Shown: positions 3,042 to 21,980, counted from the first letter of the stretch. The stretch: DNA of 64,000 nucleotides from an uncultured Faecalibacterium sp. (GCA_964542315.1 CAZIUA010000003.1:3679-67678); one strand, 5' to 3'. The notes: generated by a model from the letters alone, not told the origin. Numbers and translations: made by a program.

Positions 3042-3098
3042 AAAGAAAAAGTCACAATTCAAGCTAACAAGAAGTTAACGAGAGGGTGGGCGCAGTTT

Positions 3099-4568: not shown

Positions 4569-4582
4569 GATTCGATGATTGG

Positions 4583-7500
4583 ATGGTGAACACAGTGAAA
4601 AGGACAATCAGCCTGGTGGGTCTGCTTCTGGCCCTGCTTCTGGCCTGTACGGCGCTGGCGGACGCCAATGGTGCAACGGCACTGACGGCTGCCGATTACC
4701 AGAACATCGTCAGCACCTACTCCATCAATGCCGACATTCCCAGCTATGCGGACTATCTTGAGGCGCATGAGGAAGCGCAGCGCCCCGATGCCGCCGTGAC
4801 GATCGATGCGGACACCTTCGTCCGCTATGAGGACGCAGGCGAGGCGGTCGAGCCGTCCATCCTGGCGGACTATGACGGCGAAAAGGGCAATGCCGTGCTG
4901 ACCGGTGAGGAATCCCTCATCGAGTGGGTCGTTACCGTGCCGGAAAGCGGCCTGTATGACCTGAACGTGCGCTATTACCCCTATGAGGGAAAGAACGGCG
5001 CCATCCAGCGCGCCTTCTTCATCGACGGCGCCCTGCCCTATGATGAGCTGGCGCTGGTGGAATTCAACCGCGTGTGGCAGAATGGCGACTTCGCTGAATA
5101 TGTGGATGAAAACGGCGTGACCCTGCGCCAGTGGAACAAGGATAACCAGGGCAACGACCTGAAGCCCTCCGCCAAGGAAGCCCCCGAATGGCAGAGCAAG
5201 GGCCTCTACGATTCCAATGGCTACATCACCGAGCAGCTCAGCGTCTACCTGACGGAAGGCGAGCACACCCTGACCCTGCTGGCCATGCGCGAGCCGATGC
5301 TCATCCGCTCCATCACGCTGGAAAACGCCGAGCAGATCGCGTCCTATGCGGATGTGAAGGCGGCAGGCGATGCGGCCGGGCAGAAGGACACCTCCGGCGT
5401 GTCCGTCCGCTTTGAGGCGGAAAACGCGGTCAAGACCTCCTCTCAGATGCTCTATCCCGTGCAGGATCAGTCCTCCGCGGCGGTGTATCCGGCGTCCACC
5501 CGCTATCTGCTGAACAATGCCATCGGCGGCAACGGCTGGAAGAACGCCGGGCAGTGGATCGAGTGGCACTTCGAGGTGCCGGAGGATGGTTATTACGCTA
5601 TCTCCCTGTATGACAAGCAGAACTTTGTGCGCGGTATCAACTGCTACCGCAAGATCTATGTGGATGGCGCGGTGCCTTTTGCGGAATTCAACGCCTATGG
5701 CTTCGGCTATGACGCCAAGTGGCGCATGGAGACCCTGAAAGACGCAAGCGGCGAACCCTACCGCGTGTACCTGACCAAGGGCGAGCACACCCTGCGCATG
5801 GAGGTCGTCCTGGGCGACATGGCGCAGATCATCGCCGAGGTGCAGAACTGCGTCCAGCAGCTCAACGACATCTACCGTCAGGTGATCTACATCACCGGCG
5901 TTGCCCCTGACCAGTATCGCGATTACCAGATCGAGAGCTCCCTGCCCGGGCTGGAGGATGCACTCATCCAGGTGCAGGAGGACCTGCGCGTGGCCATGGC
6001 GGCGCTGGAGGTCACGGCGGGCTCCAACTCCGACAAGATGACCGTCCTGCGCACGATGGATGACCAGCTGACCGAGCTGATCAAGGATCAGGAGCGCTTC
6101 ACCGAGGTGCTGTCCTCCTACAAGACCAATGTGCGCGCCTGCGGCAACTGGATCACCCAGGTGCTGGGCATGCCCCTGCAGGTGGACCGCCTTTACATCC
6201 ACTCGGCGGATGTGTCCCCCAAGGCGGAGGGCGAGAACTGGCTCAATGGGCTCATCCATGAGGCCAAGCGCATGTACTATTCCTTCATCATCGACTACAA
6301 CCAGGTCGGCAACGTGGCTGACGAGGATGGCGAAAACGTGGTGCTGACGCTGTGGATCGGCACCGGCCGCGACCAGGCTAATGTCATCAAGGCGCTGATC
6401 GATGAGAAGTTCACGCCGGAGACGGGCATCTCCGTCAACGTGCAGCTGGTGGACATGAACACCCTTCTGCGCGCGACCCTGTCCGGCGAAGGCCCTGACG
6501 TGGCCATCCAGGTGGCGAATACCAACGGCATCGCCGGCGGCGTGCTCAATACCGGCAACGATACGCCGGTGAACTACGGCCTGCGTGAGGCGGTGCTGGA
6601 TCTGGCACAGTTCGACGATTTCGAGACGGTGGCCGACCGCTTCGCCCCGGCCTCCCTGGTGCCTTTCTCCTTCAACGGCGCGACCTACGCCCTGCCGGAC
6701 ACCATGACCTTCCCCATGATGTTCTACCGCAAGGACATCCTGGCTGAGATCGGTCTGGAAGTCCCCGCCACCTGGGATGAGGTCAAGGTCGCCATGACCA
6801 TCCTGGCCAAGAACCAGATGGAGTTCGGCATGCTGCCCTCCGAGCAGATCTTCGCCATGCTGCTGTTCCAGAACGGCGGCGAGTATTACACCGAGGGCGG
6901 TATGGCTTCCGCGCTGGATGACGATATCGCCATCAACGTGTTCAAGCGCTACTGCGAATACTACACAGACTACAAGCTGGACAAGGCCACCAGCGTGGAG
7001 GAACGCTTCCGCACGGGTGAATGTCCCATCATCATCTCCGACTACACCACCTACAACAACCTGCAGGTGTCCGCACCGGATATCAAGGGCCTGTGGGATT
7101 TCACCATCGTCCCCGGCACGGTGCAGGCGGATGGCAGCATCAACCACGCCACCGGTGCATCCGGCCTGGCGGATATCATCATGAGCGCCACGGAGCACCC
7201 CGCGGAGAGCTGGGAGTTCCTCAAGTGGTGGACCTCTGCTGAGATCCAGACCCTCTACGGCCGTGAGATGGAATCCCTCATGGGCGCCTCCGCCCGTGTG
7301 GCCACCGCCAACAAGGAAGCCTTGGCGAACCTCTCCTGGCCGATGAAGGACTACAAGGCCCTCGTCGCCCAGATGGAGCAGGTCAAGGGCATCCCCCAGG
7401 TGCCGGGCGGCTATTACACCTGGCGCAATGTCAACAATGCCTTCTACACCATCACCAACAATACGGCCACCAACAATACCACCCCGCGTGAAGCGCTGAT

Positions 7501-7594
7501 GGACAAGGTCTTCTACATCAACGCCGAGATCAACTACAAGCGGGCGGAGTTCGGGCTCCCGCTCGCCGCCGATGTGAAGGAGGAGCAGCAATGA
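4583..7594 (+). CDS. 1003-aa lipoprotein: two CBM-like modules fused to an ABC-transporter substrate-binding domain (family 1, LplA/YtcQ-like)
   Basis: Lipobox LLAC. Two modules resemble the CBM-like module of the GH26 gene (VTIDADTF...YDLNVRYY and VRFEAENAV...GEHTLRMEV). The C-terminal half shows SBP features (LTLWIGTGRDQ..., ALPDTMTFPMMFYRKDIL). Confidence 0.8.
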   Translation: MVNTVKRTISLVGLLLALLLACTALADANGATALTAADYQNIVSTYSINADIPSYADYLEAHEEAQRPDAAVTIDADTFVRYEDAGEAVEPSILADYDGEKGNAVLTGEESLIEWVVTVPESGLYDLNVRYYPYEGKNGAIQRAFFIDGALPYDELALVEFNRVWQNGDFAEYVDENGVTLRQWNKDNQGNDLKPSAKEAPEWQSKGLYDSNGYITEQLSVYLTEGEHTLTLLAMREPMLIRSITLENAEQIASYADVKAAGDAAGQKDTSGVSVRFEAENAVKTSSQMLYPVQDQSSAAVYPASTRYLLNNAIGGNGWKNAGQWIEWHFEVPEDGYYAISLYDKQNFVRGINCYRKIYVDGAVPFAEFNAYGFGYDAKWRMETLKDASGEPYRVYLTKGEHTLRMEVVLGDMAQIIAEVQNCVQQLNDIYRQVIYITGVAPDQYRDYQIESSLPGLEDALIQVQEDLRVAMAALEVTAGSNSDKMTVLRTMDDQLTELIKDQERFTEVLSSYKTNVRACGNWITQVLGMPLQVDRLYIHSADVSPKAEGENWLNGLIHEAKRMYYSFIIDYNQVGNVADEDGENVVLTLWIGTGRDQANVIKALIDEKFTPETGISVNVQLVDMNTLLRATLSGEGPDVAIQVANTNGIAGGVLNTGNDTPVNYGLREAVLDLAQFDDFETVADRFAPASLVPFSFNGATYALPDTMTFPMMFYRKDILAEIGLEVPATWDEVKVAMTILAKNQMEFGMLPSEQIFAMLLFQNGGEYYTEGGMASALDDDIAINVFKRYCEYYTDYKLDKATSVEERFRTGECPIIISDYTTYNNLQVSAPDIKGLWDFTIVPGTVQADGSINHATGASGLADIIMSATEHPAESWEFLKWWTSAEIQTLYGREMESLMGASARVATANKEALANLSWPMKDYKALVAQMEQVKGIPQVPGGYYTWRNVNNAFYTITNNTATNNTTPREALMDKVFYINAEINYKRAEFGLPLAADVKEEQQ

Positions 7595-8514
7595 CGGCAA
7601 TGAATCGCCCCGTGCAAAAGCGCACGCCCCTGCTCAAACAGGTGCAGCGCTCCTATGCGTCCTACCTGATGATAGCGCCCTATTTCATCCTGTTCTTCCT
7701 CTTCACCGTCCTGCCGGTGGTGATGGCCATCGTGGTCTCCTTCACCGACTGGAACATGCTTCAAATGCCGAATTTCGTCGGCTGGAACAACTATGTCAAG
7801 CTCATCCTGGATGACGATATCTTTATGATCTCCCTGAAGAACACGCTGATCTTCGCCGTCGTCACGGGCCCGGTGAGCTACATGCTCTGTCTGCTCTTTG
7901 CGTGGATCATCAACGAATTCAACCGCGGCCTGCGTACCGTGCTGACGCTGATCTTCTACGCGCCGTCCATCTGCGGCAACGCCTACATGGTCTGGAACCT
8001 CATCCTCACCGGCGACCGCTACGGCTACCTCAACGGCATCCTGCTCAAGCTGGACATCATCAACGAGCCGATCCTGTGGATGCAGACGGAACAGTATGTG
8101 CTGCCGGTGCTGATCATCGTGCAGCTGTGGCTGAGCCTTGGTACGGGCTTCCTGTCCTTCATCGCCGGTTTGCAGACGGTGGACAAGAATATGTATGAGG
8201 CCGCGGCCATCGACGGCATCAAGAACCGCTGGCAGGAGCTGTGGTATGTGACCCTGCCCGCGATGAAGCCCCAGCTGCTCTTCGGCGCGGTGATGCAGAT
8301 CACCCAGTCCTTCGCTGTGGCGGATATCTCCATCAACCTGGCGGGCAACCCCTCGGTCAACTACGCCGGCGCGACCATCGTCACCCACCTGCTGGACTAT
8401 GGCTCCACCAGGCTGGACATGGGCTATGCGTCCGCCATCGCCACCATCCTCTTCCTGCTGATGGTCGGCACGAATAAGCTGGTACAGAAACTGCTGGGAA
8501 GGGTGGGTGAGTAA
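7591..8514 (+). CDS. carbohydrate ABC transporter permease (LplB/YteP-like), pair 1
   Basis: Multi-TM protein with the EAA-type loop region (YEAAAIDGIKNRWQELWYVTLP). ATGA overlap with the upstream stop. Confidence 0.9.
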   Translation: MTAMNRPVQKRTPLLKQVQRSYASYLMIAPYFILFFLFTVLPVVMAIVVSFTDWNMLQMPNFVGWNNYVKLILDDDIFMISLKNTLIFAVVTGPVSYMLCLLFAWIINEFNRGLRTVLTLIFYAPSICGNAYMVWNLILTGDRYGYLNGILLKLDIINEPILWMQTEQYVLPVLIIVQLWLSLGTGFLSFIAGLQTVDKNMYEAAAIDGIKNRWQELWYVTLPAMKPQLLFGAVMQITQSFAVADISINLAGNPSVNYAGATIVTHLLDYGSTRLDMGYASAIATILFLLMVGTNKLVQKLLGRVGE

Positions 8515-8517
8515 GCC

Positions 8518-9456
8518 ATGAGTGAAATGCTGAAGGGTCAGGTCCGCGTCAAGGATCTTCCGCCCAAGCTGCAGAAGAAGCTCCGCCGGCAGAAGATCGT
8601 CCCCTCCCTCAAGTCCAAGAAGCTCAACCGCTCCGTGGCGGGCAACACGCTTCTGTTCACCCTGATGGGCATCTGCGCCGTGTTCATGGTGCTGCCCCTG
8701 GTGATGATCGTCAACAATGCCCTCAAGCCCCTGGACGAATTGTATCAGTATCCCCCGAAGATCTGGGTGCGCAATCCTCACCTGGAGAACTTCTCCGACC
8801 TGTTCAATCTGATGAATGACTCCTGGGTGCCGTTCTCCCGATATATGATGAACACCGTCATCATCACCGGCCTGGGCATGGTGGGTCACGTCGTGGTGGC
8901 GTCCCTGGCGGCGTATCCGCTGGCGAAGCACCACTTCCCCGGCAAGAACATCCTGTTCAGCATGGTCGTCCTGTCGATGATGTTCTCCTGGACGGTCACG
9001 CAGATCCCCCAGTATGCCATCATCTCCTGGCTGGGCATCAACAATACCTACTGGGCGCTGGTGCTGCCGGCCTTCGCATTCGGCATGGGCCTGTATCTGA
9101 TGAAGCAGTTCATGGAGCCCCTGCCGGATTCGCTGATGGAATCCGCACGCATCCAGGGTGCGAACGAGTGGCAGATCTTCTGGAAGATCGTCATGCCCAA
9201 TGTCAAGCCCGCGTGGCTGACGCTGGCCATCTTCCAGTTCCAGCAGATGTGGGGCAACACCGGCTCCCTCTTCCTGCGTGATGAGCAATTGAAGCCCATG
9301 CAGTTCGCCCTGCAGCAGATCACGGCAGGCGGCGTGTCCCGCGCGGGCGCGGCGGCAGCGGTGACCTTCATCATCGCGGCGGTGCCGATCGCGTTCTTCC
9401 TGCTGTGCCAGTCGTCCATTCTTGAGACCATGACCACATCCGGTATGAAGGACTAA
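8518..9456 (+). CDS. carbohydrate ABC transporter permease (LplC/YtcP-like), pair 1
   Basis: EAA-type loop (MESARIQGANEWQIFWKIVMPNVKP). Lies 3 nt after the upstream stop. Confidence 0.9.
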   Translation: MSEMLKGQVRVKDLPPKLQKKLRRQKIVPSLKSKKLNRSVAGNTLLFTLMGICAVFMVLPLVMIVNNALKPLDELYQYPPKIWVRNPHLENFSDLFNLMNDSWVPFSRYMMNTVIITGLGMVGHVVVASLAAYPLAKHHFPGKNILFSMVVLSMMFSWTVTQIPQYAIISWLGINNTYWALVLPAFAFGMGLYLMKQFMEPLPDSLMESARIQGANEWQIFWKIVMPNVKPAWLTLAIFQFQQMWGNTGSLFLRDEQLKPMQFALQQITAGGVSRAGAAAAVTFIIAAVPIAFFLLCQSSILETMTTSGMKD

Positions 9457-9468
9457 GGAGGGAGCGAT

Positions 9469-12219
9469 ATGAACAATATGAAGAGATCACTCCCGGCCCT
9501 GCTGCTGGCTGTGATGCTCCTGTGCAGCATGCTGCCCGCTTATGCGGAGGAGCTGCCCTACGACACCTACAACTACGACTACTGGAACGACATCTTCCGC
9601 ACGCCCGCGGCCTATGTGCCGGAGGGCAGCGTCCTGGGGACGAAGCTGACCTGGCAGGGTCAGCCCCTGGGGGCGTTCGTCGAGCCGCAGGATCTCTGCG
9701 TCGCGCCGGACGGCACCATCTATCTGGCGGACACCAACAACCACCGCATCGTCGTGCTGGATGCCAGCATGACCACGGTGCTCAATGTCATCAAGGACTT
9801 TGACAACGCCGGCAGCGCGGATGAATTCAACAAGCCCACGGGCGTGGCCGTCACCGAGAACGGCGATGTGTACATTGCCGACTCCCAGAACCACCGCGTC
9901 GTCATCCTGCATGCGGACGGTACGCTCAAGGCGATCATCGAGATCCCGGCGGCGGCCGCCAGCCAGAAGCTCGGCACGTCCACCTACACCGTCGGCACCT
10001 ACATCGAGGGGCTGGACGGCATGGGTGAGTCCGTCGCGGATGAAAACGGCGACACCTACGTCGTGGTGAACCTCACGGCGGAAGGCGCGCAGTCCGTCAC
10101 CGATGCGGACGGCATGACCTACACCCTCGCGGCGGAGAACGAGTGGCTCAAGCCCTTCCAGACCAGCTTCACCGCGGAAAACGGCGCGACCCTCACCCTC
10201 GCGGAGGACGCATCCAGCGTCACCTACACCGACGCGGATGGCAATGCGACCGTCATCGCGAATTACGACCCCATCCCGAACAAGGACATCTTCACCTACA
10301 TCGGCCGCCTGGTCAAGAAGCTCCAGGGCAGCAGCGTCAGCATGAGCAAGGTGTCCACGCTGAACGCCAAGGGCGTGTGGATCGACGACGACGGCGACCT
10401 GTACATCTGCGGCGCGAAGTCCATCACCCAGCTCAGCCCAGAGGGCAAGCTCATCCGCACCTACGCCAGCTACAAGCAGGCGGACGGCACGCAGGTCAGC
10501 CTGACGACCATCAGCGAGTTCTGCGTGCAGGATGGCAATCTGTACATCCGCGACGATGCGAACCGCATCATCGTTCTGAACGAGGACGGCAAGCTGGTGG
10601 AGATCTGCCGCAGCAATGTCATCCGCACGGCGGATGCGGCGGTGGACGCCAGTGCCGGCCAGGCGCAGGAGCAGTTCAGCGCTGTGGCCATCGACCTGGT
10701 GGGCGATTATCTGCTCTCCGGCCTGGGCGACACTGTGATCGTCATGCGCAAGGACGGTACCTTCGTCCGGACCATCGAGAACAATGCGGTGCTCCGCCTG
10801 AATGCGGACGGCGAGATCGTCGAGACCATCACCGAAGTCCAGAACGGCAAGACCACCGAGCGCTTCAACGGCGTCAGCGGTGTGGCGATGCTGGATGGCA
10901 AGCTCTGCGTGCAGGAGGCGGACAACCGCATCCTGGTCATCGAGGGCGGCAAGGCCGTTCAGATGGCGCAGAACAACGCCGTCATGGTCACCGACGGCCA
11001 GAATAACCTGATCCGCACCATCACCGGCTATGAGCAGGAGGGCGAATTCCATCCCTTCGCCACGGTGGATGGCGTGAAGGGTGTGGCCCTGGGCTATGTC
11101 TGTGACAGCACGAAGCCCGCGGCCCAGCGCGTCCAGCGCCAGATCTCCATCGCGGACAGCCTGGATCAGCTCATCACTCTCAACACGGCGGATGAGGTCA
11201 TCCGCATCAGCGTCAACCCCGACAGCGAGGTGCTGGAGGACGGCTACGTCTTCACCCCGCTGAAGGTGAGCGTCGATTACGCCGGACGCGTGTACTGCGT
11301 GGCGCAGAACATGTTCGAGGGCATCATGGTCTTTGAGACCAATGGTGAATTCACCGGTTTCTTTGGCACGATCCCTGTGAACCTCACCGCGTGGGAGAAG
11401 TTCTGGCGCAAGCTCGCCACGAAGGAGGAGCGCTCCCAGCAGCAGCTCTTCATCCCCACCGAATTCACCGGCATCGACATCGACGAGGAAGGCTTCGTCT
11501 ATGCGTCCAATGTGGACAGCACCGGCACGCAGGCCGTCCGCCGCCTGAACCCCAAGGGCGAGGACGTCATCCGCCTGGGCTGGAGCGAGAACCTCGGCGG
11601 CGACCTGTGGATCGAAGGCACCAGCCAGTATGCCGGCGCGAGCAAGATGATCGACGTCGTCTACCGCGAGAAGGGCATGTACAGCCTGCTGGACTCCAAG
11701 CGCGGACGCATCTTCACCTATGACCACGAGGGCAATCTGCTCTACATCTTCGGCAGCATCGGCAGCCAGGCTGGCACCATGACCGCGCCCGTCGCCATTG
11801 AATTCGCGGGCGACCGCATCCTGGCGCTGGACGCCAAGCAGGCCAGCATCATCATCTATCAGGAGACGGAATACGGTCGCCTGATCAACGAGGCCGTGGG
11901 CCTGCGCTATGACGGCGATGAATCCCAGGCCGTGGCGCTGTGGGAGCAGGTGCTCCGCATGGATGAGAACAACGAGCTGGCCAATATCGGCATCGGCAAG
12001 GCGTATCTCTCTGCCGGTGACAATGAGAAGGCCATGGAATACCTGAAGCGCGGCATGAGCCAGGATTACTACTCCGTGGCGTTCAAGCGCTACCGCAACG
12101 AGGTGCTCAAGGCGAACATCCAGTGGATCCTCACCGGCGTGGTGGTGCTGATCGCTGCGCTGTGGGCGTTCTTCAAATTCGTCAAGCCCCGCATGCACAA
12201 AAAGGAAAGGAGAGTGTGA
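9469..12219 (+). CDS. NHL-repeat beta-propeller protein with a C-terminal TPR segment and C-terminal TM anchor
   Basis: Signal peptide (...MLPAYAEE). NHL-type repeats (IYLADTNNHRIVVLD, VYIADSQNHRVVILH and later copies). TPR-like ...NIGIGKAYLSAGDNEKAMEYLKRG. Terminal TM segment ILTGVVVLIAALWAFFKFV followed by basic residues. Confidence 0.75.
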   Translation: MNNMKRSLPALLLAVMLLCSMLPAYAEELPYDTYNYDYWNDIFRTPAAYVPEGSVLGTKLTWQGQPLGAFVEPQDLCVAPDGTIYLADTNNHRIVVLDASMTTVLNVIKDFDNAGSADEFNKPTGVAVTENGDVYIADSQNHRVVILHADGTLKAIIEIPAAAASQKLGTSTYTVGTYIEGLDGMGESVADENGDTYVVVNLTAEGAQSVTDADGMTYTLAAENEWLKPFQTSFTAENGATLTLAEDASSVTYTDADGNATVIANYDPIPNKDIFTYIGRLVKKLQGSSVSMSKVSTLNAKGVWIDDDGDLYICGAKSITQLSPEGKLIRTYASYKQADGTQVSLTTISEFCVQDGNLYIRDDANRIIVLNEDGKLVEICRSNVIRTADAAVDASAGQAQEQFSAVAIDLVGDYLLSGLGDTVIVMRKDGTFVRTIENNAVLRLNADGEIVETITEVQNGKTTERFNGVSGVAMLDGKLCVQEADNRILVIEGGKAVQMAQNNAVMVTDGQNNLIRTITGYEQEGEFHPFATVDGVKGVALGYVCDSTKPAAQRVQRQISIADSLDQLITLNTADEVIRISVNPDSEVLEDGYVFTPLKVSVDYAGRVYCVAQNMFEGIMVFETNGEFTGFFGTIPVNLTAWEKFWRKLATKEERSQQQLFIPTEFTGIDIDEEGFVYASNVDSTGTQAVRRLNPKGEDVIRLGWSENLGGDLWIEGTSQYAGASKMIDVVYREKGMYSLLDSKRGRIFTYDHEGNLLYIFGSIGSQAGTMTAPVAIEFAGDRILALDAKQASIIIYQETEYGRLINEAVGLRYDGDESQAVALWEQVLRMDENNELANIGIGKAYLSAGDNEKAMEYLKRGMSQDYYSVAFKRYRNEVLKANIQWILTGVVVLIAALWAFFKFVKPRMHKKERRV

Positions 12220-12221
12220 CC

Positions 12222-12854
12222 ATGAAGGAGCTGTTTGGCAAGGAAAAGTGGAAATACCTCTTCTATACCGTGACCCATCCCAGTGACGGATACTACTGGA
12301 TCCGCCATAAGGAGAAGGGCAGCGTGGGCATCGCGATGGTGCTGGTGCTCCTCTTTGGTCTGTGCTTCACCCTCAACCGCCTGCTGACGTCCTTTGTGGT
12401 CAGCGCGATCAATGTCCGCCAGGTGGACCTGCTGCCCGAACTGGGCGGCGTGGTGCTGCTGTATCTGCTCCTGTGTGTGGGCAACTGGTCCATCACCTGC
12501 CTGATGGATGGCGAGGGGCGCTTCAAGGACATCATGATCGCCATCGGCTATGCCATGCTGCCCATGATCATCACCTATGTGCTGGCCACCATCGTCAGCC
12601 GCTTCCTGGCGGATAACGAGCAGGCCTTCTACACCATCATCATGGGCATCGGCATCGCCTACACGCTGATCATGGCGCTCACGGGCATCATGCAGATCCA
12701 CAATTACACCCTCGGCAAGACGCTGCTGACCCTCCTGCTGACGCTGGTGGCGGTGTTCATCATCATCTTCCTGACGATGCTGGTGGCCAGCTTCATCGGC
12801 CAGGTGGTGGCGTTCTTCCAGAGCATCTATACCGAATTGATCTTCAGATTCTAA
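12222..12854 (+). CDS. Yip1-family integral membrane protein
   Basis: About five TM segments after a soluble N-terminus (KYLFYTVTHPSDGYYWI), resembling bacterial Yip1-domain proteins. Preceded by AAAGGAAAGGAGAG; lies 2 nt after the upstream stop. Confidence 0.65.
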   Translation: MKELFGKEKWKYLFYTVTHPSDGYYWIRHKEKGSVGIAMVLVLLFGLCFTLNRLLTSFVVSAINVRQVDLLPELGGVVLLYLLLCVGNWSITCLMDGEGRFKDIMIAIGYAMLPMIITYVLATIVSRFLADNEQAFYTIIMGIGIAYTLIMALTGIMQIHNYTLGKTLLTLLLTLVAVFIIIFLTMLVASFIGQVVAFFQSIYTELIFRF

Positions 12855-12872
12855 AGCGGGAGGGAAGGAAGC

Positions 12873-15491
12873 ATGAAAAACAAGAAGAATCATCCTGCTC
12901 CCGCGGCACAGGGCAGGAAGGGCTGGCTGTGGATCGTGCTGATCGCCGTGCTGGTCGCGGCGGCGGCGCTCCTTGGCTGGTACCTGATGCGCTATCAGTT
13001 CAACCGGGATTACCTGGCCTTCATCACCGAGCCGGCCGCTGCGGTGGAAGGCATGGAATTCACGCCCCTGGCGGATGATGATCCCGCGGTGGAGGGCATG
13101 GCGCTGGCTGCTGAAAACGGCACGCTCAAGCTCTACGCCAACGCATCCACGGGCGAAGTCGCGGTGCATGACCTGCGCAGCGGACGGACGGTCTACTCCA
13201 ATCCGCCCCAGGCCAACAGCGACAAGATCGCCAACAAGACCAACAAGAACTACCTCAAGTCCCAGTTCCTGCTGGAGTATTTCAACTCCGGCCTGACCGC
13301 CAACACCTATGACAGCTACACCAAGAGCGTGGAGCTGGGCAATATCAAGGCGGAATCCATCCCGGACGGCGTGCGCTTCACCTATGAGGTGGGCGAAGAG
13401 GTGGAGGTCTACTACGTTCCGCATCTGCTGTCCGATGCGCGCTTCCAGGAGCTGTACAACGGCTCTTCCGCCACGGTGCAGAAGCTGATGACCGGCCAGG
13501 CGAATTCCTTCTATGCACAGGATGAGGAAGGCAACTGGCGCATCACCGAGAACGGCGTGAAGATGTCCATCCGCAACCTGAACCGCATGTCCGAGAGCTT
13601 CCTTGAGCTGGGCCTGACGGTCGAGGAATACTACGACTGGCAGGAGAAGGCGGAAGTGACCGTCAACGAGGCGCTGGGTTTCACCGTGGTGCTGGAATGG
13701 ACCCTGCGCGGCGACGGCGTGGAATGCACCGTCCCGGCGGACCGCATCCAGGAGCGCGGCGGCGGCATGGTGCGCCGCATCCAGCTGCTGCCCTACATGG
13801 GTGCGGCCAGCGCGGAGGAAGAGGGCTACATCGTCGTGCCCAATGGCTCCGGCGCGCTGATCGACTTCAACAACGGCAAGACCACCAGCGCGGTCTACAG
13901 CCAGTATGTCTACGACATGGATCTGGTGGATGCGGAATACACCAAGACGCAGACCATCCAGTCCGTTCGGCTGCCGCTCTTTGCGCTTTGCCGCAAGGAC
14001 AGCACCGTTCTGGCCACCATCGAGAAGGGCGCGTCCTTCGCGTCCATCACGGCGGACATCAGTGGCCGCAACAATTCCTACAACAATGCCTATGTCACCT
14101 TCACCCTGCGCGGCAGCGGGAAGCTCTCCATGTTCGGCGCGGGTGAAACGGCGGATATGCCCATCGTGGAGAGCAAGCTCTACGACGAAACGCTGACCGT
14201 CCGCTACACCCTCCTGAACGAGGAGAACACCGGCTACAGCGGTGTGGCGAATTACTACCGCGCGCGCCTGCTGGATGAAGGCGTGCTGACCGAAAAGGCG
14301 GAAGGCGGCGACATCCCCTTCTACTATGACGTGATCGGCGGCGTGAAGGAGCGTACCCACACCCTGGGCGTGCAGCACCTGCGCGTGATGGCCATGACCA
14401 CCTTTGATGAGGCGGCTGAAATGACCGGCATCCTGGCGGACAAGGGCGTGACCCATCAGGTCATGAACTTCCAGGGCTGGATGAACGGCGGCTACTATCA
14501 CGATGTGGCGGATGACATCCGCATCCAGCGCCAGCTGGGCAGCAAGAAGGATCTGGAGAAGCTCAGCGCCGGTCTGACGGCCATGGGCGGAGAACTGTAC
14601 GCCGATGTGGCCCTCCAGAATGTGACCTATGTGGCCAAGCACTACCGCTATCAGGAGGAAAGCTCCCGCTATTACGGCGCGGGCTATGCGGTGTCCTTCG
14701 GCGAGGTGAATCCGGCGAACTTCCGCCGCACCGCCTCCCTGGGCTATTCCGAGAACCTCTATGACCTGCTGTCCCCCAAGTTCCTGCCCCATTACGTCAG
14801 CCATTTCATCGATGAGATGGACGATATCGACATCACCGGCATCTCCCTGCGCGACCTGGGCAATGAGCTGCATTCGGACAAGAAGCGCACCAATATCATC
14901 AACCGCGAGGAAGCGCTGATGATCGTGGAGGCGCAGCTGGATGCCCTTCGCCAGAGCGGCAAGCGCCTGATGGTCTCAGGTGGCAACGACTACGCCCTGG
15001 AAGGCGTCAGCCATGTGCTGGCCGCTCCCATGCAGGCCACGGAATACTTCATCGTGGATGAGAGCATCCCGCTGTACCAGATGATCGTGCATGGCTGCCT
15101 GGATTACACCGGGCGCGCCATCAACACCCTGACCAGTAACGACATGCGCGCAGACCTGCTCCACCTGGTGGAGTACGGCGCATCCACCAGGTACACCTTC
15201 ACCTGGGAGGACGCGACGGACATGAAGTACACCGGTCTGAACAAGTTCTATGCCACGACCTTCGCCTCCTGGGCGGATGAAGCGGTGGAGAACTACCAGT
15301 ACGTCAACGGCGCGCTGAAATGCGTCAGCAATGCCCGGATGGTCAGCCACGAGGCCCTCACCGACACGGTGAAGAAGGTCGGCTATTCCAACGGCGTGAC
15401 CATCTACGTCAACTACGGCACGGCGGATGCGCAGGCGGACGGCTACACCATCCCTGCCAAGGACTATCTTGTGATCGGAGGCGTGAATTAA
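12873..15491 (+). CDS. N-terminally membrane-anchored DUF5696-like protein (unknown function)
   Basis: A single N-terminal TM segment (WLWIVLIAVLVAAAALLGWYL) followed by about 830 aa outside. The family is assigned from memory of this gene context, not from a search. Confidence 0.6.
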   Translation: MKNKKNHPAPAAQGRKGWLWIVLIAVLVAAAALLGWYLMRYQFNRDYLAFITEPAAAVEGMEFTPLADDDPAVEGMALAAENGTLKLYANASTGEVAVHDLRSGRTVYSNPPQANSDKIANKTNKNYLKSQFLLEYFNSGLTANTYDSYTKSVELGNIKAESIPDGVRFTYEVGEEVEVYYVPHLLSDARFQELYNGSSATVQKLMTGQANSFYAQDEEGNWRITENGVKMSIRNLNRMSESFLELGLTVEEYYDWQEKAEVTVNEALGFTVVLEWTLRGDGVECTVPADRIQERGGGMVRRIQLLPYMGAASAEEEGYIVVPNGSGALIDFNNGKTTSAVYSQYVYDMDLVDAEYTKTQTIQSVRLPLFALCRKDSTVLATIEKGASFASITADISGRNNSYNNAYVTFTLRGSGKLSMFGAGETADMPIVESKLYDETLTVRYTLLNEENTGYSGVANYYRARLLDEGVLTEKAEGGDIPFYYDVIGGVKERTHTLGVQHLRVMAMTTFDEAAEMTGILADKGVTHQVMNFQGWMNGGYYHDVADDIRIQRQLGSKKDLEKLSAGLTAMGGELYADVALQNVTYVAKHYRYQEESSRYYGAGYAVSFGEVNPANFRRTASLGYSENLYDLLSPKFLPHYVSHFIDEMDDIDITGISLRDLGNELHSDKKRTNIINREEALMIVEAQLDALRQSGKRLMVSGGNDYALEGVSHVLAAPMQATEYFIVDESIPLYQMIVHGCLDYTGRAINTLTSNDMRADLLHLVEYGASTRYTFTWEDATDMKYTGLNKFYATTFASWADEAVENYQYVNGALKCVSNARMVSHEALTDTVKKVGYSNGVTIYVNYGTADAQADGYTIPAKDYLVIGGVN

Positions 15492-16409
15492 ATGAGTAAG
15501 CTGCATGTCTCCATGAAGACCAAGCGGGCAGTGAATGGCTACCTGTTCATCCTGCCCTGGCTGATCGGCTTTGTGCTGTTCTATGTGCGCAGCCTGTATC
15601 AGACGGTGGAATTCTCCCTGTCCTCGCTGACGGTGCTGCCGGCCGGCGGCTACGAGCTGGACTTCGTCGGTTTTGCGAACTACATCACGGCCTTCACCGG
15701 ACACGGCACCTTCAAGCAGACGCTGACCACCTCCCTGATGAACATGGTGGTGGATGTGCCGCTGATCATCTTCTTCTCCTTGTTCGTGGCGATGCTGCTG
15801 AACAAGAAGATGAAGTGCCGCGGCCTGGTGCGCGCGATCTTCTTCCTGCCGGTGCTGATGAACTCCGAGGCCATTGCCGGCACGCTGGAATACGCTGCGC
15901 AGATGATGGCCGGCGGCCTGAGCGGCACCTCCGCCGAAATGGCGGAAGCCGCCTCCTCCGGTACGGCGGTCAACATGGCCTACTTCGTTGAGCTCTTCGG
16001 CGAGATCGCCCTGCCCGAGGCGGTGCTGGACTATGTGGTGGGTGCGGTCAGCCGCATCAGCGACATCATCCAGGCCTCTGGTGTGCAGATCGTGCTGTTC
16101 ATCGCGGCGCTGCAGTCCATCACCCCGTCCATGTACGAGGTGGCGAAGATCGAGGGCGCGACCGGCTATGAGACCTTCTGGAAGGTCACCTTCCCCATGG
16201 TCATGCCCCACATCATCACCAACACCATCTACACCATCGTGGATGCCTTCAGCCAGTCCGAAGTGGTCAACCTGGCCTACACCACCGCTTTCACAGAGAG
16301 CAAGTACGGCCTGTCCTCCGCGTTCAGCGTGATCTCGACGGTCATCACCTGTTCGCTGCTGGCGCTGGTGGTGTACCTGATGTCCAAGAAGACCTTCTAC
16401 TACAACTAA
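15492..16409 (+). CDS. carbohydrate ABC transporter permease, pair 2
   Basis: Multi-TM protein with loop YEVAKIEGATGYETFWKVTFP. The start is directly adjacent to the upstream stop. Confidence 0.9.
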   Translation: MSKLHVSMKTKRAVNGYLFILPWLIGFVLFYVRSLYQTVEFSLSSLTVLPAGGYELDFVGFANYITAFTGHGTFKQTLTTSLMNMVVDVPLIIFFSLFVAMLLNKKMKCRGLVRAIFFLPVLMNSEAIAGTLEYAAQMMAGGLSGTSAEMAEAASSGTAVNMAYFVELFGEIALPEAVLDYVVGAVSRISDIIQASGVQIVLFIAALQSITPSMYEVAKIEGATGYETFWKVTFPMVMPHIITNTIYTIVDAFSQSEVVNLAYTTAFTESKYGLSSAFSVISTVITCSLLALVVYLMSKKTFYYN

Positions 16410-16427
16410 AGGGGAGGAGAGGAAAAC

Positions 16428-17366
16428 ATGAAAGCAATGGAAAAATGGCATGCGTTCCGCAATTCTCCCCGGTATGAGGATCGCAAGGGCGCGGCCTCCA
16501 AGAAAACCAAGAGCCTGCTGATGACGCTGCTGCAGATCGTGCTGATCGTGGGCATTGCCTACGTCATCCTCAGCCCGGTGATCGGCATCATCTCCCAGTC
16601 CTTCTTCTCCGACAGCGACTCGGCCAACCCCATGGTCTTCACCATCCCGATGAAGCCGACGCTGGAACGCTACAAGGGGGCCTGGACGGAGCTGAAATAC
16701 CCCACCACCCTGGCCTGGACGCTGGCCTATACCGTCATCAACACCCTGTTCCAGGTGTTCATCTGCTCCATGGTCGGATACGGCTTTGCGCGCTTTGAGT
16801 TCCCGCTGAAGAAGGTGCTCTTCGCCTGCGTGGTGGTGATGATCGTCATCCCCAACCACACCATCATGCTCTCGCAGTACATGACCTTCCGCGCGATGGA
16901 GCTGATGCGCTCCCAGATGCCGGTGTACATCCTGACCATCTGCGGCGTCGGATTGCGGTCGGGTCTGTATATCTACATCTTCAACCAGTTCTTCCGCGGC
17001 TTGCCCAAGGAGATCGAGGAGGCCGCCTTCGTGGACGGCGCCGGCACCTGGTACACCTACTTCCGCATCATGCTGGTCAACGCCATGCCTGCGGTCATCA
17101 CGGTGACGGTGTTCTCCCTGGTGTGGCAGTATAACGACATGTTCTACGCCAAGCTGTTCCAGATCCCCAATGCGCAGCTGCTGGCGCGCCAGCTCTCCAC
17201 GCTGCAGAGCAATATCGGCGCGAACCTGAAGATCATGAACGTGCGTATCCAGAAGCTCTACGTCAACGCGGGTGTGGTGCTGACGATGCTGCCCATCCTG
17301 ATCATCTACCTCCTGCTGCAGAAGCGCTTTGTCGAGGGCGTGGAACGCTCCGGCATCGTCGGCTGA
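16428..17366 (+). CDS. carbohydrate ABC transporter permease, pair 2
   Basis: Loop EEAAFVDGAGTWYTYFRIMLVNAMP. Preceded by GGGGAGGAGAGG. Confidence 0.9.
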   Translation: MKAMEKWHAFRNSPRYEDRKGAASKKTKSLLMTLLQIVLIVGIAYVILSPVIGIISQSFFSDSDSANPMVFTIPMKPTLERYKGAWTELKYPTTLAWTLAYTVINTLFQVFICSMVGYGFARFEFPLKKVLFACVVVMIVIPNHTIMLSQYMTFRAMELMRSQMPVYILTICGVGLRSGLYIYIFNQFFRGLPKEIEEAAFVDGAGTWYTYFRIMLVNAMPAVITVTVFSLVWQYNDMFYAKLFQIPNAQLLARQLSTLQSNIGANLKIMNVRIQKLYVNAGVVLTMLPILIIYLLLQKRFVEGVERSGIVG

Positions 17367-17503: not shown

Positions 17504-17530
17504 CGGCGCGGGTGCTTTCACGGCATCCGC
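17504..17530 (+). repeat. 27-nt direct repeat, copy 2 (forms the terminator stem)
   Basis: Same sequence as copy 1 but followed by TTTTTT. Confidence 0.8.
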
Positions 17531-17538
17531 GCTTTTTT
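17508..17538 (+). terminator. rho-independent terminator closing the 14.5-kb operon
   Basis: GCGGGTGC-loop-GCATCCGC followed by a T6 run. Confidence 0.65.
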
Positions 17539-17645: not shown

Positions 17646-18590
17646 ATGGAAAAGATCGTTGTGCTGGACGGTGCGGTGGAGAACCCCGGCGACCTCTCCT
17701 GGGAGCCGCTGGCAGCCCTGGGCGCGCTGACCGTCCATGATTATACCGCGCCGGAGGATGTGCTCAGCTGCATGGGGGATGCCGCCATTGTGCTGACCAA
17801 CAAGACCGTCATCACGGCGGACATGATGGCGCAGTGCCCGAATCTGCGCTATATTGGCGTGCTGGCCACGGGCTATAACGTGGTGGATGTGGCCGAGGCG
17901 AAAAGGCGCAGCATCGTTGTGACCAATGTGCCGGCGTATTCCACGCCCACGGTGGCGCAGTTCACCATGGCACTGCTGCTGGAGATCGCCCTGCATGTGG
18001 GGCATCACAGCGAAGCGGTGCATGCGGGCAAGTGGAGCGCCTGCCGGGATTTCGCCTTCTGGGACTATCCGCTCATGGAGCTGCGCGGCAAGACCATGGG
18101 CATCGTGGGGTATGGCAGCATCGGGCAGGAGGTCGCCCGGCTGGCGAAGGCCTTCGGCATGCGCGTGCTGGCCTATTCACGCCATGGCTGCGCGGAGGAT
18201 TATGCGCCGCTGGATGAGCTCTATGCCCAGGCGGACATCGTGTCCCTGCACTGCCCGCTGACGGCGGAAAATGCAGGCATGATCGACAAACACACCATCG
18301 CGAAGATGAAGGACGGCGTCATCCTGCTGAACACGGCGCGGGGCGGCCTCATCAATGAGCAGGACCTGCGCGAGGCGCTGCTGTCCGGCAAGGTGTATGC
18401 GGCGGCGTCGGACGTGGTGTCCGCAGAACCCATCCGGGCGGACAATCCCCTTTTGGGGCTGAAGAATATGATCATCACGCCGCATATCGCGTGGGCGGCG
18501 ACGGAAGCCCGTCAGCGCCTGATGGACATTGCCACGGACAATGTCCGCCAATTCCTGGCCGGGCATGTGCAGAACAATGTGGCAAAATGA
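17646..18590 (+). CDS. D-isomer-specific 2-hydroxyacid dehydrogenase (glycerate/hydroxypyruvate reductase-like)
   Basis: NAD-binding GKTMGIVGYGSIGQEVA, plus the LNTARGGLI and ITPHIAWAT blocks typical of the family. Confidence 0.9.
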   Translation: MEKIVVLDGAVENPGDLSWEPLAALGALTVHDYTAPEDVLSCMGDAAIVLTNKTVITADMMAQCPNLRYIGVLATGYNVVDVAEAKRRSIVVTNVPAYSTPTVAQFTMALLLEIALHVGHHSEAVHAGKWSACRDFAFWDYPLMELRGKTMGIVGYGSIGQEVARLAKAFGMRVLAYSRHGCAEDYAPLDELYAQADIVSLHCPLTAENAGMIDKHTIAKMKDGVILLNTARGGLINEQDLREALLSGKVYAAASDVVSAEPIRADNPLLGLKNMIITPHIAWAATEARQRLMDIATDNVRQFLAGHVQNNVAK

Positions 18591-18602
18591 GGAGGGCTGA
18601 CG

Positions 18603-19007
18603 ATGCGTCCGACGATCCTGACCTTCAACCTGGCGGAGAGCCGCCTGTCAAAATTGCGCTTTTTGTGCATGAAGCTGGGCTGCGCGGTGAAGCCCGTGCC
18701 GGAAACGGACTGGGGACAGCCGCTGTCCGCGCTGTGCGGTTTGTCCGCTGCGGAAGAAAATGCCCCTGCGGAAGAAAATGCCCCTGCGGAACCCTTTGCC
18801 GGCGAGATGCTGGTCTTCTGCCACATGGACAATGCGGCCGTCAACCGCTTTCTACAAACGGCGAAGCAGATGCGCTTCCAGCCGGTGGCACTCAAGGCCA
18901 TCCTGACCCCGACCAACGCCGCGTGGACGCCAGTCCGCCTGCATGCGGAACTGTCGGCGGAACGCGAAGCCATCCTTCATGGCGGGACCGCTGACCATCC
19001 GGACTGA
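18603..19007 (+). CDS. DUF3783 domain protein
   Basis: Small protein with ...KAILTPTNAAWTPVRLHAELSAERE..., as remembered for DUF3783. Confidence 0.55.
   Translation: MRPTILTFNLAESRLSKLRFLCMKLGCAVKPVPETDWGQPLSALCGLSAAEENAPAEENAPAEPFAGEMLVFCHMDNAAVNRFLQTAKQMRFQPVALKAILTPTNAAWTPVRLHAELSAEREAILHGGTADHPD
18750..18791 (+). repeat. in-frame tandem duplication (18-nt unit x2 plus a partial copy) encoding AEENAP AEENAP AE
   Basis: GCGGAAGAAAATGCCCCT is repeated back to back. Confidence 0.9.
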
Positions 19008-19021
19008 AAGGAGCATGCGCC

Positions 19022-19972
19022 ATGCATGAGTTGACCATCCGCCCGGAGGACGGGTTGCAAGCCGCCATCGACCGCCTGCCTGCGGATGGCGAGAGCGCCG
19101 TCATCCGCCTGATGCCCGGCGAATACCGCGAGAAGGTCGAGCTGCGCCGTCCCCACACCACCATCGAGGGTGCCGGTGCGGACAAAACACGCATCGTCTG
19201 GGCGGATGCAGCCACAGCGCCCCATCCCGACGGGCTGAACATCGGCACCTTCCGCTCCTACACGCTGCTGATCCTGGCGGCGGACTGTCATCTGCGCGGG
19301 TTGACCATTCAGAATGTCGCTGGCCCCCGCGAGACCGTCGGACAGTGTGTGGCGCTCTTTGTGGATGGCGACGGCTTCACCTGTGAGGACTGCACGCTCC
19401 TGAGCCACCAGGATACGCTGTTCACTGCGCCCCTGCCTCCGAAGGAAGTGCTCAAAAACGGCTTCCTGGGGCCGACGCAGCTCCTGCCGCGCGTCCCCCA
19501 GCGCCAGACCTACCGCCGCTGCATCATCAAGGGCGATGTGGACTTCATCTTTGGCGGCGCGGCAGCGTGGTTCGAGGATTGCGACATAGTGTGCGTGGAC
19601 GGCTATGAGGGACGGCGCGCACCGGGCGGATACGCCACGGCGGCCTCCACGCCGGAAGGGCAGAAGTATGGCTATGTGTTCCGCCATTGCAGGTTTCTGG
19701 GGGAAAACGTGCCGGAGGCTTCCTTCTATTTGGGACGCCCCTGGCGGGAATTCGCCAAGACCATTCTGCTGGAATGCCATATCGGCGCACACATCAGGCC
19801 CGAAGGCTGGAATGACTGGGGCAAGGCGGATTTCGCACACACCGGGTTGTATGCCGAATACGGCTGCACCGGTGCGGGCAGCGACACAAGCGCCCGGGCG
19901 GAATTCTCCCGCACGCTGACGGCGGAGGAGGCCGCGGCCATCACCTATGAGGACTTTATGCAAAGCCTGTGA
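19022..19972 (+). CDS. pectinesterase (CE8), no signal peptide seen
   Basis: CE8 signatures are present: QCVALFV, SHQDTLF, GDVDFIFG, YLGRPW. Confidence 0.85.
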   Translation: MHELTIRPEDGLQAAIDRLPADGESAVIRLMPGEYREKVELRRPHTTIEGAGADKTRIVWADAATAPHPDGLNIGTFRSYTLLILAADCHLRGLTIQNVAGPRETVGQCVALFVDGDGFTCEDCTLLSHQDTLFTAPLPPKEVLKNGFLGPTQLLPRVPQRQTYRRCIIKGDVDFIFGGAAAWFEDCDIVCVDGYEGRRAPGGYATAASTPEGQKYGYVFRHCRFLGENVPEASFYLGRPWREFAKTILLECHIGAHIRPEGWNDWGKADFAHTGLYAEYGCTGAGSDTSARAEFSRTLTAEEAAAITYEDFMQSL

Positions 19973-19996
19973 GAAAACTGTGGATAACATAAAAGT

Positions 19997-20034
19997 GCGC
20001 AGCCATCGGACGGATCCGGTGTCTGCGCGTTTTT
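19997..20034. terminator. hairpin terminator between convergent genes
   Basis: GCGCAG...CTGCGC stem followed by TTTTT. Confidence 0.55.
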
Positions 20035-20045
20035 GTTACGCTCGA

Positions 20046-21404: not shown

Positions 21405-21436
21405 CTTCTTTGGACGAAGCCCTGCACGGAAATGCG

Positions 21437-21886
21437 TCAGGGGTTCGCCGCCATTTGGTCGAGTTCTCTGCGGAAGGAGCGGTTGTACTTCTCCATCAGG
21501 GCCATATACTGCGCCAGCTCCTCGGCGGTCCAGCCAGCCAGGGCGCGGCATTCCGTTTCGTGCAGACGGCTGCCGGTCTGGCGGATGAAGTCCTTGCCGC
21601 TGTCCGTCAGCCACACGCGCTTCAACTTGCCCTTGTCCTGCGCCAGATAGAGCAGCCCGTCCGTCTCCAGCTTCCGCATGGCGGAATTGATGGTCTGCTT
21701 GCTGGCACCGCTCTCGTTATATATGTCGTAGAGCAGGCAGCCGTCGCCCTTTTCGTGCAGTGTGTAGGCCACGATCAGCACGCTGTCCGCCACGCCGAGC
21801 TGGCGCGCCGCCTGATGATACAGCGCGTCGAGGTCCTGGGCGAGGCAGTTGAGTTTGTGGATCACTTGCTGATGGTCGTTGCTCAT
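21437..21886 (-). CDS. MarR family transcriptional regulator
   Basis: 149 aa with a winged-helix region (SGASKQTINSAMRKLETDGLLY). Sits directly upstream of the MATE gene on the same strand. Confidence 0.85.
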   Translation of the reverse strand: MSNDHQQVIHKLNCLAQDLDALYHQAARQLGVADSVLIVAYTLHEKGDGCLLYDIYNESGASKQTINSAMRKLETDGLLYLAQDKGKLKRVWLTDSGKDFIRQTGSRLHETECRALAGWTAEELAQYMALMEKYNRSFRRELDQMAANP

Positions 21887-21905
21887 GGTTTCTCCTTCTT
21901 TAATG

Positions 21906-21956: not shown

Positions 21957-21980
21957 GCCCTTTGGGAAGAAAAAGCGCGC

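Follow-up and report, generated by a model that had tools for sequence, protein, structure and literature searches.

Background

In gut Firmicutes and soil Paenibacillus, fragments of plant fibre are taken up mainly through ATP-binding cassette (ABC) importers, and the usual scheme of a sugar importer shows a single binding protein together with two permeases and an ATPase. Here we describe a nine-gene operon in a 64,000-nucleotide (nt) stretch of DNA from an uncultured Faecalibacterium sp. (GCA_964542315.1, CAZIUA010000003.1:3679-67678; hereafter the window), in which three consecutive genes, encoding an NHL/TPR protein, a Yip1 protein and a DUF5696 protein, lie between two permease pairs. 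A first reading of the window by a model (the original prediction) had singled out this trio as an uncharacterised envelope module. On balance we think it probable that the trio serves a so far undescribed, multi-component ABC importer for sugars in Bacillota as a conserved set of accessory subunits. A literature search found no paper on DUF5696, on this gene arrangement or on Yip1 or NHL proteins in a carbohydrate-import setting.

The closest described systems are the beta-mannan utilisation loci of Firmicutes with CUT1 importers, which likewise combine an extracellular mannanase of glycoside hydrolase family 26 (GH26) with a binding-protein-dependent ABC importer and resemble the relatives of our locus that add GH130, GH5, esterases, GH36 and a LacI regulator. 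The Roseburia intestinalis mannan model reportedly has one binding protein and one permease pair, whereas the operon described here has two permease pairs, a binding protein of about 1000 amino acids (aa) and the trio. PMC13278490 cites R. intestinalis as the model for such loci in Firmicutes.

Two other systems bear on the trio. Bacteroidota Sus-like utilisomes comprise a transporter together with surface glycan-binding proteins and enzymes, and offer a likeness in concept (by analogy only), in that binding and enzyme-like proteins that face outward are linked genetically, and presumably also physically, to a glycan transporter. Unlike them, the present locus has no SusC or SusD, belongs to the cytoplasmic membrane of monoderms and would be energised by an ABC ATPase, and any complex here is deduced from genes. 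In the YknWXYZ system of Bacillus, as in our operon, a Yip1-domain membrane protein is encoded with an ABC transporter, and YknW is described in PMC4887032 (citing Yamada et al. 2012) as modulating assembly of the YknXYZ transporter. The original prediction had called the bacterial role of Yip1 proteins essentially unknown, which overlooks this record. YknYZ is a MacB-type exporter that acts with a membrane-fusion protein and guards against a peptide toxin, whereas the operon examined here encodes MalF/MalG-type importer permeases, a propeller/TPR protein and a glycoside-hydrolase-like ectodomain and occurs in polysaccharide loci; Pfam and NCBIfam searches found no MacB or membrane-fusion-protein gene among the operon neighbours. 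The parallel carries over only as the general idea that a Yip1 protein can be an accessory of an ABC transporter.

Results and discussion

Organization of the operon

Open reading frame (ORF) and Pfam analysis delimited nine tightly packed genes on the plus strand at 3030-17366, with intergenic gaps of -4 to +18 nt. The genes and the structures that flank them are as follows.

2808-2830 and 2940-2971, plus strand: two terminator-like hairpins, with stems of 8 and 12 pairs followed by T runs
3030-4568, plus strand: CBM35-GH26 mannanase, secreted, gene 1 of the operon
4583-7594, plus strand: solute-binding protein of 1003 aa with a lipoprotein-like signal (SBP_bac_1)
7591-8514, plus strand: permease A1, MalF/UgpA-type (BPD_transp_1; NCBIfam UgpA, GlcT, MalF)
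8518-9456, plus strand: permease A2, MalG/UgpE-type (BPD_transp_1; NCBIfam GlcU, UgpE, MalG)
9469-12219, plus strand: NHL/TPR protein of 916 aa with a transmembrane (TM) segment (Pfam NHL, TPR_19)
12222-12854, plus strand: Yip1 protein, 210 aa from the ATG at 12222 (Pfam Yip1)
12873-15491, plus strand: DUF5696 protein of 872 aa (Pfam DUF5696)
15492-16409, plus strand: permease B1, divergent MalF/UgpA-type (BPD_transp_1, E 1e-9; NCBIfam UgpA)
16428-17366, plus strand: permease B2, MalG/UgpE-type, the last operon gene in this genome (BPD_transp_1; NCBIfam MalG, GlcU)
17505-17533, plus strand: strong terminator-like hairpin at the operon end, with a 12-pair stem (8 G-C pairs) followed by TTTTTGT

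The two upstream hairpins close the preceding unit and mark the 5' boundary of the operon, and no hairpin of a strength comparable to the flanking terminators was found within the nine genes. The junctions around the trio measure 12 nt (A2 to NHL), 2 nt (NHL to Yip1), 18 nt (Yip1 to DUF5696) and 0 nt (DUF5696 to B1), such that the B1 start codon abuts the DUF5696 stop codon, and a GGAGG-like run that could serve as ribosome-binding site precedes each start in the trio region. The ORF coordinates, lengths and domain calls of the original prediction and its gaps of 2, 18 and 0 nt all proved exact. The GH26 ORF is listed from a GTG at 3030 with an ATG directly after it, giving two candidate starts, and a promoter-like match at 3014-3041 that overlaps this start is probably due to chance.

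Conservation of the gene arrangement

The DUF5696 alignment was used to scan one genome per species, which yielded at least 493 relatives; the best 80 loci were kept. Linkage was counted in these 80 loci by tblastn with the nine window proteins, taking as denominator the loci whose contig reaches the position of the gene. Every reachable copy was present for NHL (73/73), Yip1 (77/77), B1 (77/77), B2 (72/72), A2 (70/70), A1 (69/69) and the large binding protein (67/67), and only GH26 was ever missing (present in 61 of 64). All nine genes are colinear on one strand in 57 of the 80 loci. The carriers belong to Lachnospiraceae, Oscillospiraceae, Christensenellales and other Clostridia and include Clostridium sp. 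KNHs205 (L052), whose genome is not metagenome-assembled. Two further carriers of a complete nine-gene locus, at 53-88% identity, are labelled Alloprevotella sp. (L006, CAVEOA010000004.1) and Bacteroidaceae bacterium (L007, CAVIHU010000003.1); every other carrier is of the Bacillota, and mis-binning is a more likely source of these two labels than transfer into Bacteroidota. In some related loci of high G+C content, automatic ORF picking let shadow ORFs displace real genes (cluster '7-').

We also examined eight distant contexts from two classes of Bacillota, Clostridia and Bacilli, in which DUF5696 identity to the window protein, where measured, ranges from 24% (Paenibacillus) to about 25-31% (56-member family alignment A2). 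Each keeps as much of the core as its contig holds.

L081: Yip1, DUF5696, two permeases, GH43, GH3, xylose isomerase, xylulokinase, GH30
L082 (partial contig): permease, NHL (496 aa), Yip1, DUF5696, permease
L083 (partial contig): Yip1, DUF5696
L084/L085: GH130, 1000-aa binding protein, two permeases, 722-aa NHL+TPR+Yip1 protein, DUF5696, two permeases, LacI
L088 (Paenibacillus tarimensis, complete genome): AraC, MalK-like ATPase, 1003-aa binding protein, two permeases, 705-aa NHL/TPR/Yip1 fusion, DUF5696, two permeases, GH43
L089: fusion, DUF5696, two permeases, binding protein, GH51
L090/L091: AraC, GFO/IDH/MocA oxidoreductase, 1013-aa binding protein, two permeases, fusion, DUF5696, two permeases
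L092: fusion, DUF5696, two permeases, GH16

In all distant contexts that we examined, the Yip1 domain is encoded directly 5' of DUF5696, whether as a separate protein or in fusion with the NHL/TPR anchor that precedes it. Such a fusion is present in five of the eight contexts (L084/L085, L088, L089, L090/L091 and L092), and an independent search with the NHL protein recovered six fusion proteins (P0350, P0351, P0355, P0357, P0362 and P0367). In their alignment the TM segment and basic tail of the NHL protein run directly into the Yip1 N-terminus.

The conserved core thus comprises eight genes, for the binding protein of about 1000 aa, a permease pair, the NHL/TPR, Yip1 and DUF5696 proteins and a second permease pair. 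Because this core is constant while the enzymes vary among loci, the travelling unit is the core, with enzymes that change with the polymer. The co-occurrence of Yip1, DUF5696 and NHL genes for which the original prediction had asked for a check is therefore borne out, with linkage to both permease pairs across Clostridia and Bacilli.

Locus-specific enzymes

The first gene of the window operon encodes a GH26 enzyme (Pfam Glyco_hydro_26, E 1e-72) with a carbohydrate-binding module (CBM_35, E 8e-13), and among solved structures it is closest to endo-beta-1,4-mannanases (3zm8 at E 4e-90, followed by 6hpf and 6ueh). Most related loci extend the operon with a lipoprotein carrying three CBM65 modules, a second binding protein of about 490 aa, DUF624, LacI, GH130 and GH5, and some add CE2 or GDSL esterases, GH36 or a GH1 fused to phosphomannose isomerase; together they make up the enzymatic equipment of a locus for acetylated (galacto)glucomannan. 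All of these additional genes are missing from the 64-kb window, with no homologue of the CBM65 lipoprotein, the second binding protein, DUF624, LacI, GH130 or GH5 anywhere in it; the operon stops at the terminator after B2 and the next genes encode a 2-hydroxyacid dehydrogenase and a pectinesterase. A mannan specificity of the module, as suggested by the mannan substrates proposed in the original prediction, does not hold, since the same core occurs in loci with GH43, GH51, GH3, GH30, GH16 or an oxidoreductase. The core is best read as substrate-independent, with locus-specific enzymes added around it, here the GH26 mannanase.

Importer components

Two MalF/MalG-type permease pairs and one large family-1 binding protein are recognizable as parts of a CUT1 importer. 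All four permeases have EAA-type loops (for example YEAAAIDG in A1 and the EAA-like YEVAKIEG in B1), which implies that both translocators should be coupled to an ATPase.

The binding protein shows an LLAC motif, as in lipoproteins, and is 29% identical to its Paenibacillus counterpart across all 1003 aa with the architecture kept. SBP_bac_1 covers only residues 601-889, sugar-binding proteins of the PDB match only 584-898, and the first ~580 residues (window 4583-6322) have no Pfam family above threshold. Below threshold, CBM_35 matches in this N-terminal half at E 0.045 here and at 5e-4 in L084, which can be taken as a hint only. The same half shows two weakly CBM35-like repeats (…VPESGLYDLNVRYY… and …VPEDGYYAISLY…) and then a long helical stretch. 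In three distant loci, the second permease pair is followed by a protein of 258-446 aa without a Pfam match (L084 14765-16042, L090 16860-18200 and L088 16294-17070); these could be divergent binding proteins. The mannan loci have CBM65 and binding proteins at the corresponding place.

The NHL/TPR and Yip1 proteins

Topology was assigned by hand from hydropathy and charge with the positive-inside rule. The NHL/TPR protein begins with a cleavable-looking signal peptide (residues 1-26, …LPAYA|EE) and ends with a TM segment (879-897) and the basic tail KPRMHKKERRV; its cytoplasmic part would be only ~19 residues long, and no kinase, histidine-kinase or DNA-binding domain was found. The Yip1 protein matches Pfam Yip1 (PF04893) at E 5.5e-14 over profile positions 2-171 of 173 and has five TM segments, with the N-terminus predicted to be cytoplasmic. 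In the fusions the cytoplasmic tail of the NHL protein is joined to the N-terminus of Yip1, so the fusion junction fits the topology predicted for the separate proteins. The DUF5696 protein has a basic N-terminal tail (MKNKKNH…GRKG) and a single TM segment at 21-39, and each of 56 diverse representatives of DUF5696 has a TM anchor, a signal peptide or a lipobox at its start, which makes an extracytoplasmic location a property of the family. The original prediction that the large domains face outward rather than the cytoplasm thus agrees with the signal peptide, TM and charge pattern of the trio.

Pfam matches in the NHL/TPR protein are NHL (E 5e-17) and TPR_19 (E 5e-6, residues 815-866), and NHL domains are its sequence matches in the PDB (E 3e-30). 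Core blades lie at residues ~28-162 and ~560-800, followed by TPR-like helices at 801-861. In the AlphaFold2 model (predicted local distance difference test, pLDDT, 84.7), residues 34-800 are all-beta and precede the TPR-like helices and a long helix that includes the TM segment, which is consistent with a core propeller into which a second propeller has been inserted. The putative insertion (residues ~163-560, window 9955-11148, ~340-400 extra residues) is confined to the window and its closest relatives (L001, L002, L004-L007 and L078), and most orthologues, at ~500 aa, match residues ~24-162 and ~500-916 of the window protein. Some relatives (P0327, P0328 and P0330) even reach 1310-1325 aa.

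Foldseek matches of this model are diverse tandem-propeller proteins, among them hybrid two-component glycan sensors of Bacteroides, coatomer and IFT proteins, with TM-scores of 0.1-0.2, and would tell no more than that the protein consists of propellers and a short helical repeat. We rejected a coatomer-, IFT-A- or Utp21-like reading given these scores, a helical part of only ~60 residues and E-values that are driven by the propellers.

Relationship of DUF5696 to GH129

The DUF5696 protein matches Pfam PF18952 over profile positions 8-612 of 612 (642 bits, E 1e-192). An exhaustive profile search found 5,917 representatives of this family at 50% identity with E <= 1e-3, and 3,540 with E <= 1e-30. 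The AlphaFold2 model, built from a 38-sequence alignment (pLDDT 86, predicted TM-score 0.84), places a variable, mixed N-terminal domain (~60-260) behind the TM segment at 21-39, followed by a beta-sandwich (~260-450), a (beta/alpha)8 barrel (~483-818) and a C-terminal beta-sandwich (823-868). The alternating beta/alpha look that the original prediction had noted in the second half of the protein agrees with this model, in which the segment that it pointed to, VTHQVMNFQGWMNGGYYHD (residues 526-544), falls on strand beta2 of the predicted barrel.

The fold search that had been suggested for DUF5696 matched glycoside hydrolases. The best PDB matches by Foldseek are the GH129 enzymes 5opq (ZGAL_3152; E 8e-33, TM-score by target 0.68) and 5wzn (NagBb; E 7e-29, TM-score by target 0.71-0.73), after which come GH101, GH36 and GH31. 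At the sequence level, a single-sequence search against the PDB returned nothing meaningful, and a search with the family profile gave NagBb as the top match at only E 0.03, with QGWMNGGY aligned to DGWAQPGY. A Pfam scan of the 56 diverse members at E <= 1 found no GH family. In the reverse direction, NagBb-like GH129 fragments match PF18952 at 57 bits (cutoff 25.6) as well as the GH101 model, and hhalign aligned the 56-member family alignment with rebuilt NagBb-like sequences over 569 columns (probability 98.5%, E 3e-14). Two GH129 sequences were rebuilt by hand for this purpose from three reading frames of the contigs L086 and L087, and their numbering is approximate at the frameshift joints.

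The source genes, of Bifidobacterium type, are located on two ENA metagenome contigs (L086 94-1721 and L087 4214-6104) and are frameshifted into short called genes, which is why the protein collection gave only fragments in the NagBb search; the precomputed Pfam labels of these fragments are both Glyco_hydro_101 and DUF5696. Against the GH36 genes of related loci, hhalign was not significant (probability 0.4%) and was not used for catalytic residues.

Taken together, the structural match, the profile-profile comparison and the reverse search of GH129 fragments against PF18952, which are the only sources of the link, indicate that DUF5696 and GH129 are distantly homologous; GH101 comes second among the structural matches. 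At about 12-17%, sequence identity falls far short of what CAZy requires for family membership. The original prediction had described all three proteins as unrecognisable from sequence motifs, which for DUF5696 no longer applies once profiles and structures are compared. Like the GH129 enzymes NagBb, an alpha-N-acetylgalactosaminidase of Bifidobacterium bifidum, and ZGAL_3152, a 3,6-anhydro-D-galactosidase of Zobellia, DUF5696 is predicted to consist of an N-terminal beta-sandwich, a (beta/alpha)8 barrel and a C-terminal beta-sandwich, and both families have a G-W motif after strand beta2. In contrast to GH129, DUF5696 proteins are 750-980 aa long, begin with a membrane anchor, a signal peptide or a lipobox, possess one more domain at the N-terminus, and are encoded inside ABC-importer operons beside Yip1.

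Conservation of the putative DUF5696 pocket

Of the two catalytic residues of NagBb, only the nucleophile Asp435 is kept in ZGAL_3152, as its nucleophile Asp486, and this enzyme lacks Glu478 of NagBb (PMC5698469). In the rebuilt GH129 sequence Asp435 lies in GIKLDCAYLD(435)VF, and the counterpart of this segment in DUF5696 is GISLRD(661)LGNELHSD(669)KKRTNIINR(678), at the end of strand beta4. Asp661 is present in 38 of 38 orthologues but in only 40 of the 56 family representatives, and the alignment near the nucleophile is ambiguous; the substitutes found in the other 16 (T, S, N, Y, H, K, F or A) are not alignment artefacts. In the Paenibacillus homologue, Ala replaces Asp661 and Asn replaces Asp729. 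The segment GILSSSE(478)EV holds what we take to be the acid/base of NagBb, and this Glu aligns with a non-acidic stretch, VSGGN(705)D, where hhalign pairs it with Ser702. Only 22 of the 38 orthologues have Asp at position 706, which is mostly Ala across the family, and the Glu has no conserved counterpart in DUF5696.

Other positions are far more constant among the 56 representatives: Asp350, Arg678 and Asn751 occur in all 56, Asp729 and Trp536 in 54, Glu767 and Asn404 in 53, and Asp669 in 52. The conserved residues W536 (within the GW motif, residues 534-541), D578, D669, R678, N705, D729, H740, N751 and K785 map just after barrel strands, on the canonical ligand face of a TIM barrel, and so do most members of the wider set that includes Asp350, Asn404 and Glu767. 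In the DUF5696 family, then, a pocket appears to be conserved while the GH129-type catalytic pair does not. Because Asp661 and Asp729 are both present, the window protein could be active. For the family as a whole, the alignments make a non-catalytic role in sugar binding at least as likely as an enzymatic one, and its common function is more likely to be sugar binding, or chemistry with another set of residues. The original suggestion that DUF5696 is an unrecognised carbohydrate-active enzyme finds support in its predicted fold and homology to GH129; that it acts as an enzyme is possible, and is unproven given that the catalytic pair is not conserved across the family.

Proposed mechanism

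If the trio belongs to the importer, the secreted GH26 would cut mannan, and the giant binding protein would feed the first translocator. Given that other lineages fuse them, the NHL/TPR anchor and Yip1 would make up a single membrane unit, which might organise transporter assembly, by analogy with the Yip1 protein YknW. The GH129-like ectodomain would hold oligosaccharides, and in some lineages perhaps trim them, in the conserved pocket on the catalytic face of its barrel by the second translocator. We infer the physical complex, the NHL/TPR-Yip1 scaffold, the binding of sugar and any enzymatic step. The original view of the trio as a surface capture or processing complex is upheld as regards its outward topology, its linkage and its fusions, whereas the complex is deduced and processing is no more than possible.

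Several points weigh against this reading. Contacts among the trio proteins and with the permeases are deduced from genomics, not from direct evidence, and from genomics alone two ordinary ABC importers with an unrelated three-gene insert are possible. No ATPase gene was found in the operon or among the annotated flanking genes; a shared ATPase encoded elsewhere is common in Firmicutes, and a MalK-like ATPase heads the Paenibacillus version of the operon. The second binding protein, which in most relatives is encoded 3' of B2, was not found in the 64-kb window, which leaves the second translocator without a nearby binding protein and the delivery of its substrate unexplained. The YknW precedent concerns a MacB-type exporter and not an importer. 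Finally, DUF5696 residues were mapped on the barrel face from secondary-structure positions, not from coordinates.

If the components do form a machine, models of glycan capture by monoderm fibre degraders would have to change, bacterial Yip1 proteins would gain a concrete function, and DUF5696 would be assigned to a new glycosidase family or a glycosidase-derived binding module. What is new, in that no description was found in the literature searched, is the joint occurrence of two translocators and a 1000-aa binding protein with three conserved components that face outward or lie in the membrane, and the variant appears to be very widespread, with about 5,900 DUF5696 clusters at 50% identity and every context examined of this type. 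Its carriers include a complete Paenibacillus genome and the Clostridium sp. KNHs205 genome mentioned above, which makes the reading testable. A bolder form of it, which we offer only tentatively, is a monoderm 'utilisome': a stoichiometric supercomplex of the propeller/TPR-Yip1 scaffold, a GH129-derived (pseudo)enzyme, a CBM-bearing giant binding protein and two ABC translocators that would capture and thread long hemicellulose oligosaccharides, with the core reused for mannan, xylan, arabinan and beta-glucan by a swap of enzymes.

Alternative explanations

The relationship to GH129 might instead mean that DUF5696 is an active retaining glycosidase, the founder of a new GH129-related family, which trims or debranches hemicellulose oligosaccharides at the surface before uptake (here perhaps at alpha-linked galactose) while NHL and Yip1 merely tether it. 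We regard this as doubtful. GH129, GH101, GH36 and GH31, to which DUF5696 is linked by profile homology (GH129) or predicted fold, are retaining enzymes that act mostly on alpha-linkages; the catalytic face of the barrel is where conserved polar residues gather; and the window protein and its 38 orthologues all have Asp661 (end of beta4) and Asp729 (after beta6), 68 residues apart, a spacing that we presume to be close to that between nucleophile and acid/base in GH31 and GH36. However, one of the 16 representatives in which Asp661 is replaced (P0218, L084) stands in a GH130-containing locus, the Paenibacillus homologue has kept neither Asp, Glu478 of NagBb is aligned with the non-acidic SGGN, and the alignment of the nucleophile region is ambiguous. 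The polymers addressed by the loci of this family also differ chemically, and a GH36 alpha-galactosidase is already encoded in some mannan loci; the idea that DUF5696 is itself an alpha-galactosidase was downgraded for these last two reasons.

That the trio regulates the locus, with the NHL propeller as an extracellular sensor like PknD or the propellers of Bacteroides hybrid two-component systems, seems improbable. The NHL sensor domain of PknD is indeed a sequence match (E 4e-14), and the glycan-sensing propellers BT4663 and BT4673 are among the fold matches, but the latter reach TM-scores of only 0.1-0.2 and the short cytoplasmic tail has no signalling output domain. Moreover, the fusion partner of the NHL protein in other lineages is Yip1 rather than a signalling module, its gene is always located within the block of permease genes, and the loci have separate LacI or AraC regulators. 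Least probable of all is that no functional unit exists and that two ordinary, neighbouring CUT1 importers flank three unrelated envelope genes by chance. Both pairs resemble standard MalF/MalG permeases, and in many loci pair B is followed by another binding protein of ordinary type, as this explanation would have it. The linkage data already contradict it: neither gene order nor gene content varies in the 80 loci and eight distant contexts, across two Bacillota classes and unrelated enzyme sets, the genes overlap or abut, and NHL and Yip1 are repeatedly fused. Such invariance of gene order across very deep divergence argues against a chance three-gene insert and leaves accessory subunits of a sugar importer as the reading that we favour. 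None of the three observations that the original prediction had named as counting against it (a characterised homologue of DUF5696 or the NHL protein with an unrelated function, a lack of co-occurrence outside this genome, and large domains in the cytoplasm) was made.

Flanking genes and antisense reading frames

The genes on either side of the operon (275-2734 and 17646-26057) look unrelated to it. Strand is given where it is the minus strand.

275-1174 (minus strand) and 1226-2146: ORFs without a Pfam match, upstream
2186-2734: DUF1836 protein, upstream
17646-18590: D-2-hydroxyacid dehydrogenase, downstream
19022-19972: pectinesterase, downstream
20046-21614, minus strand: MATE transporter, downstream
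22627-23298, minus strand: GNAT acetyltransferase, downstream
23569-24498 and 24489-26057: ORFs without a Pfam match, downstream

Four long antisense ORFs within the operon, all on the minus strand (9487-12198, 12090-14873, 4547-7600 and 14976-16859; 584-1017 aa), were rejected as genes; they are shadow ORFs that mirror the real genes in a sequence of 60% G+C.

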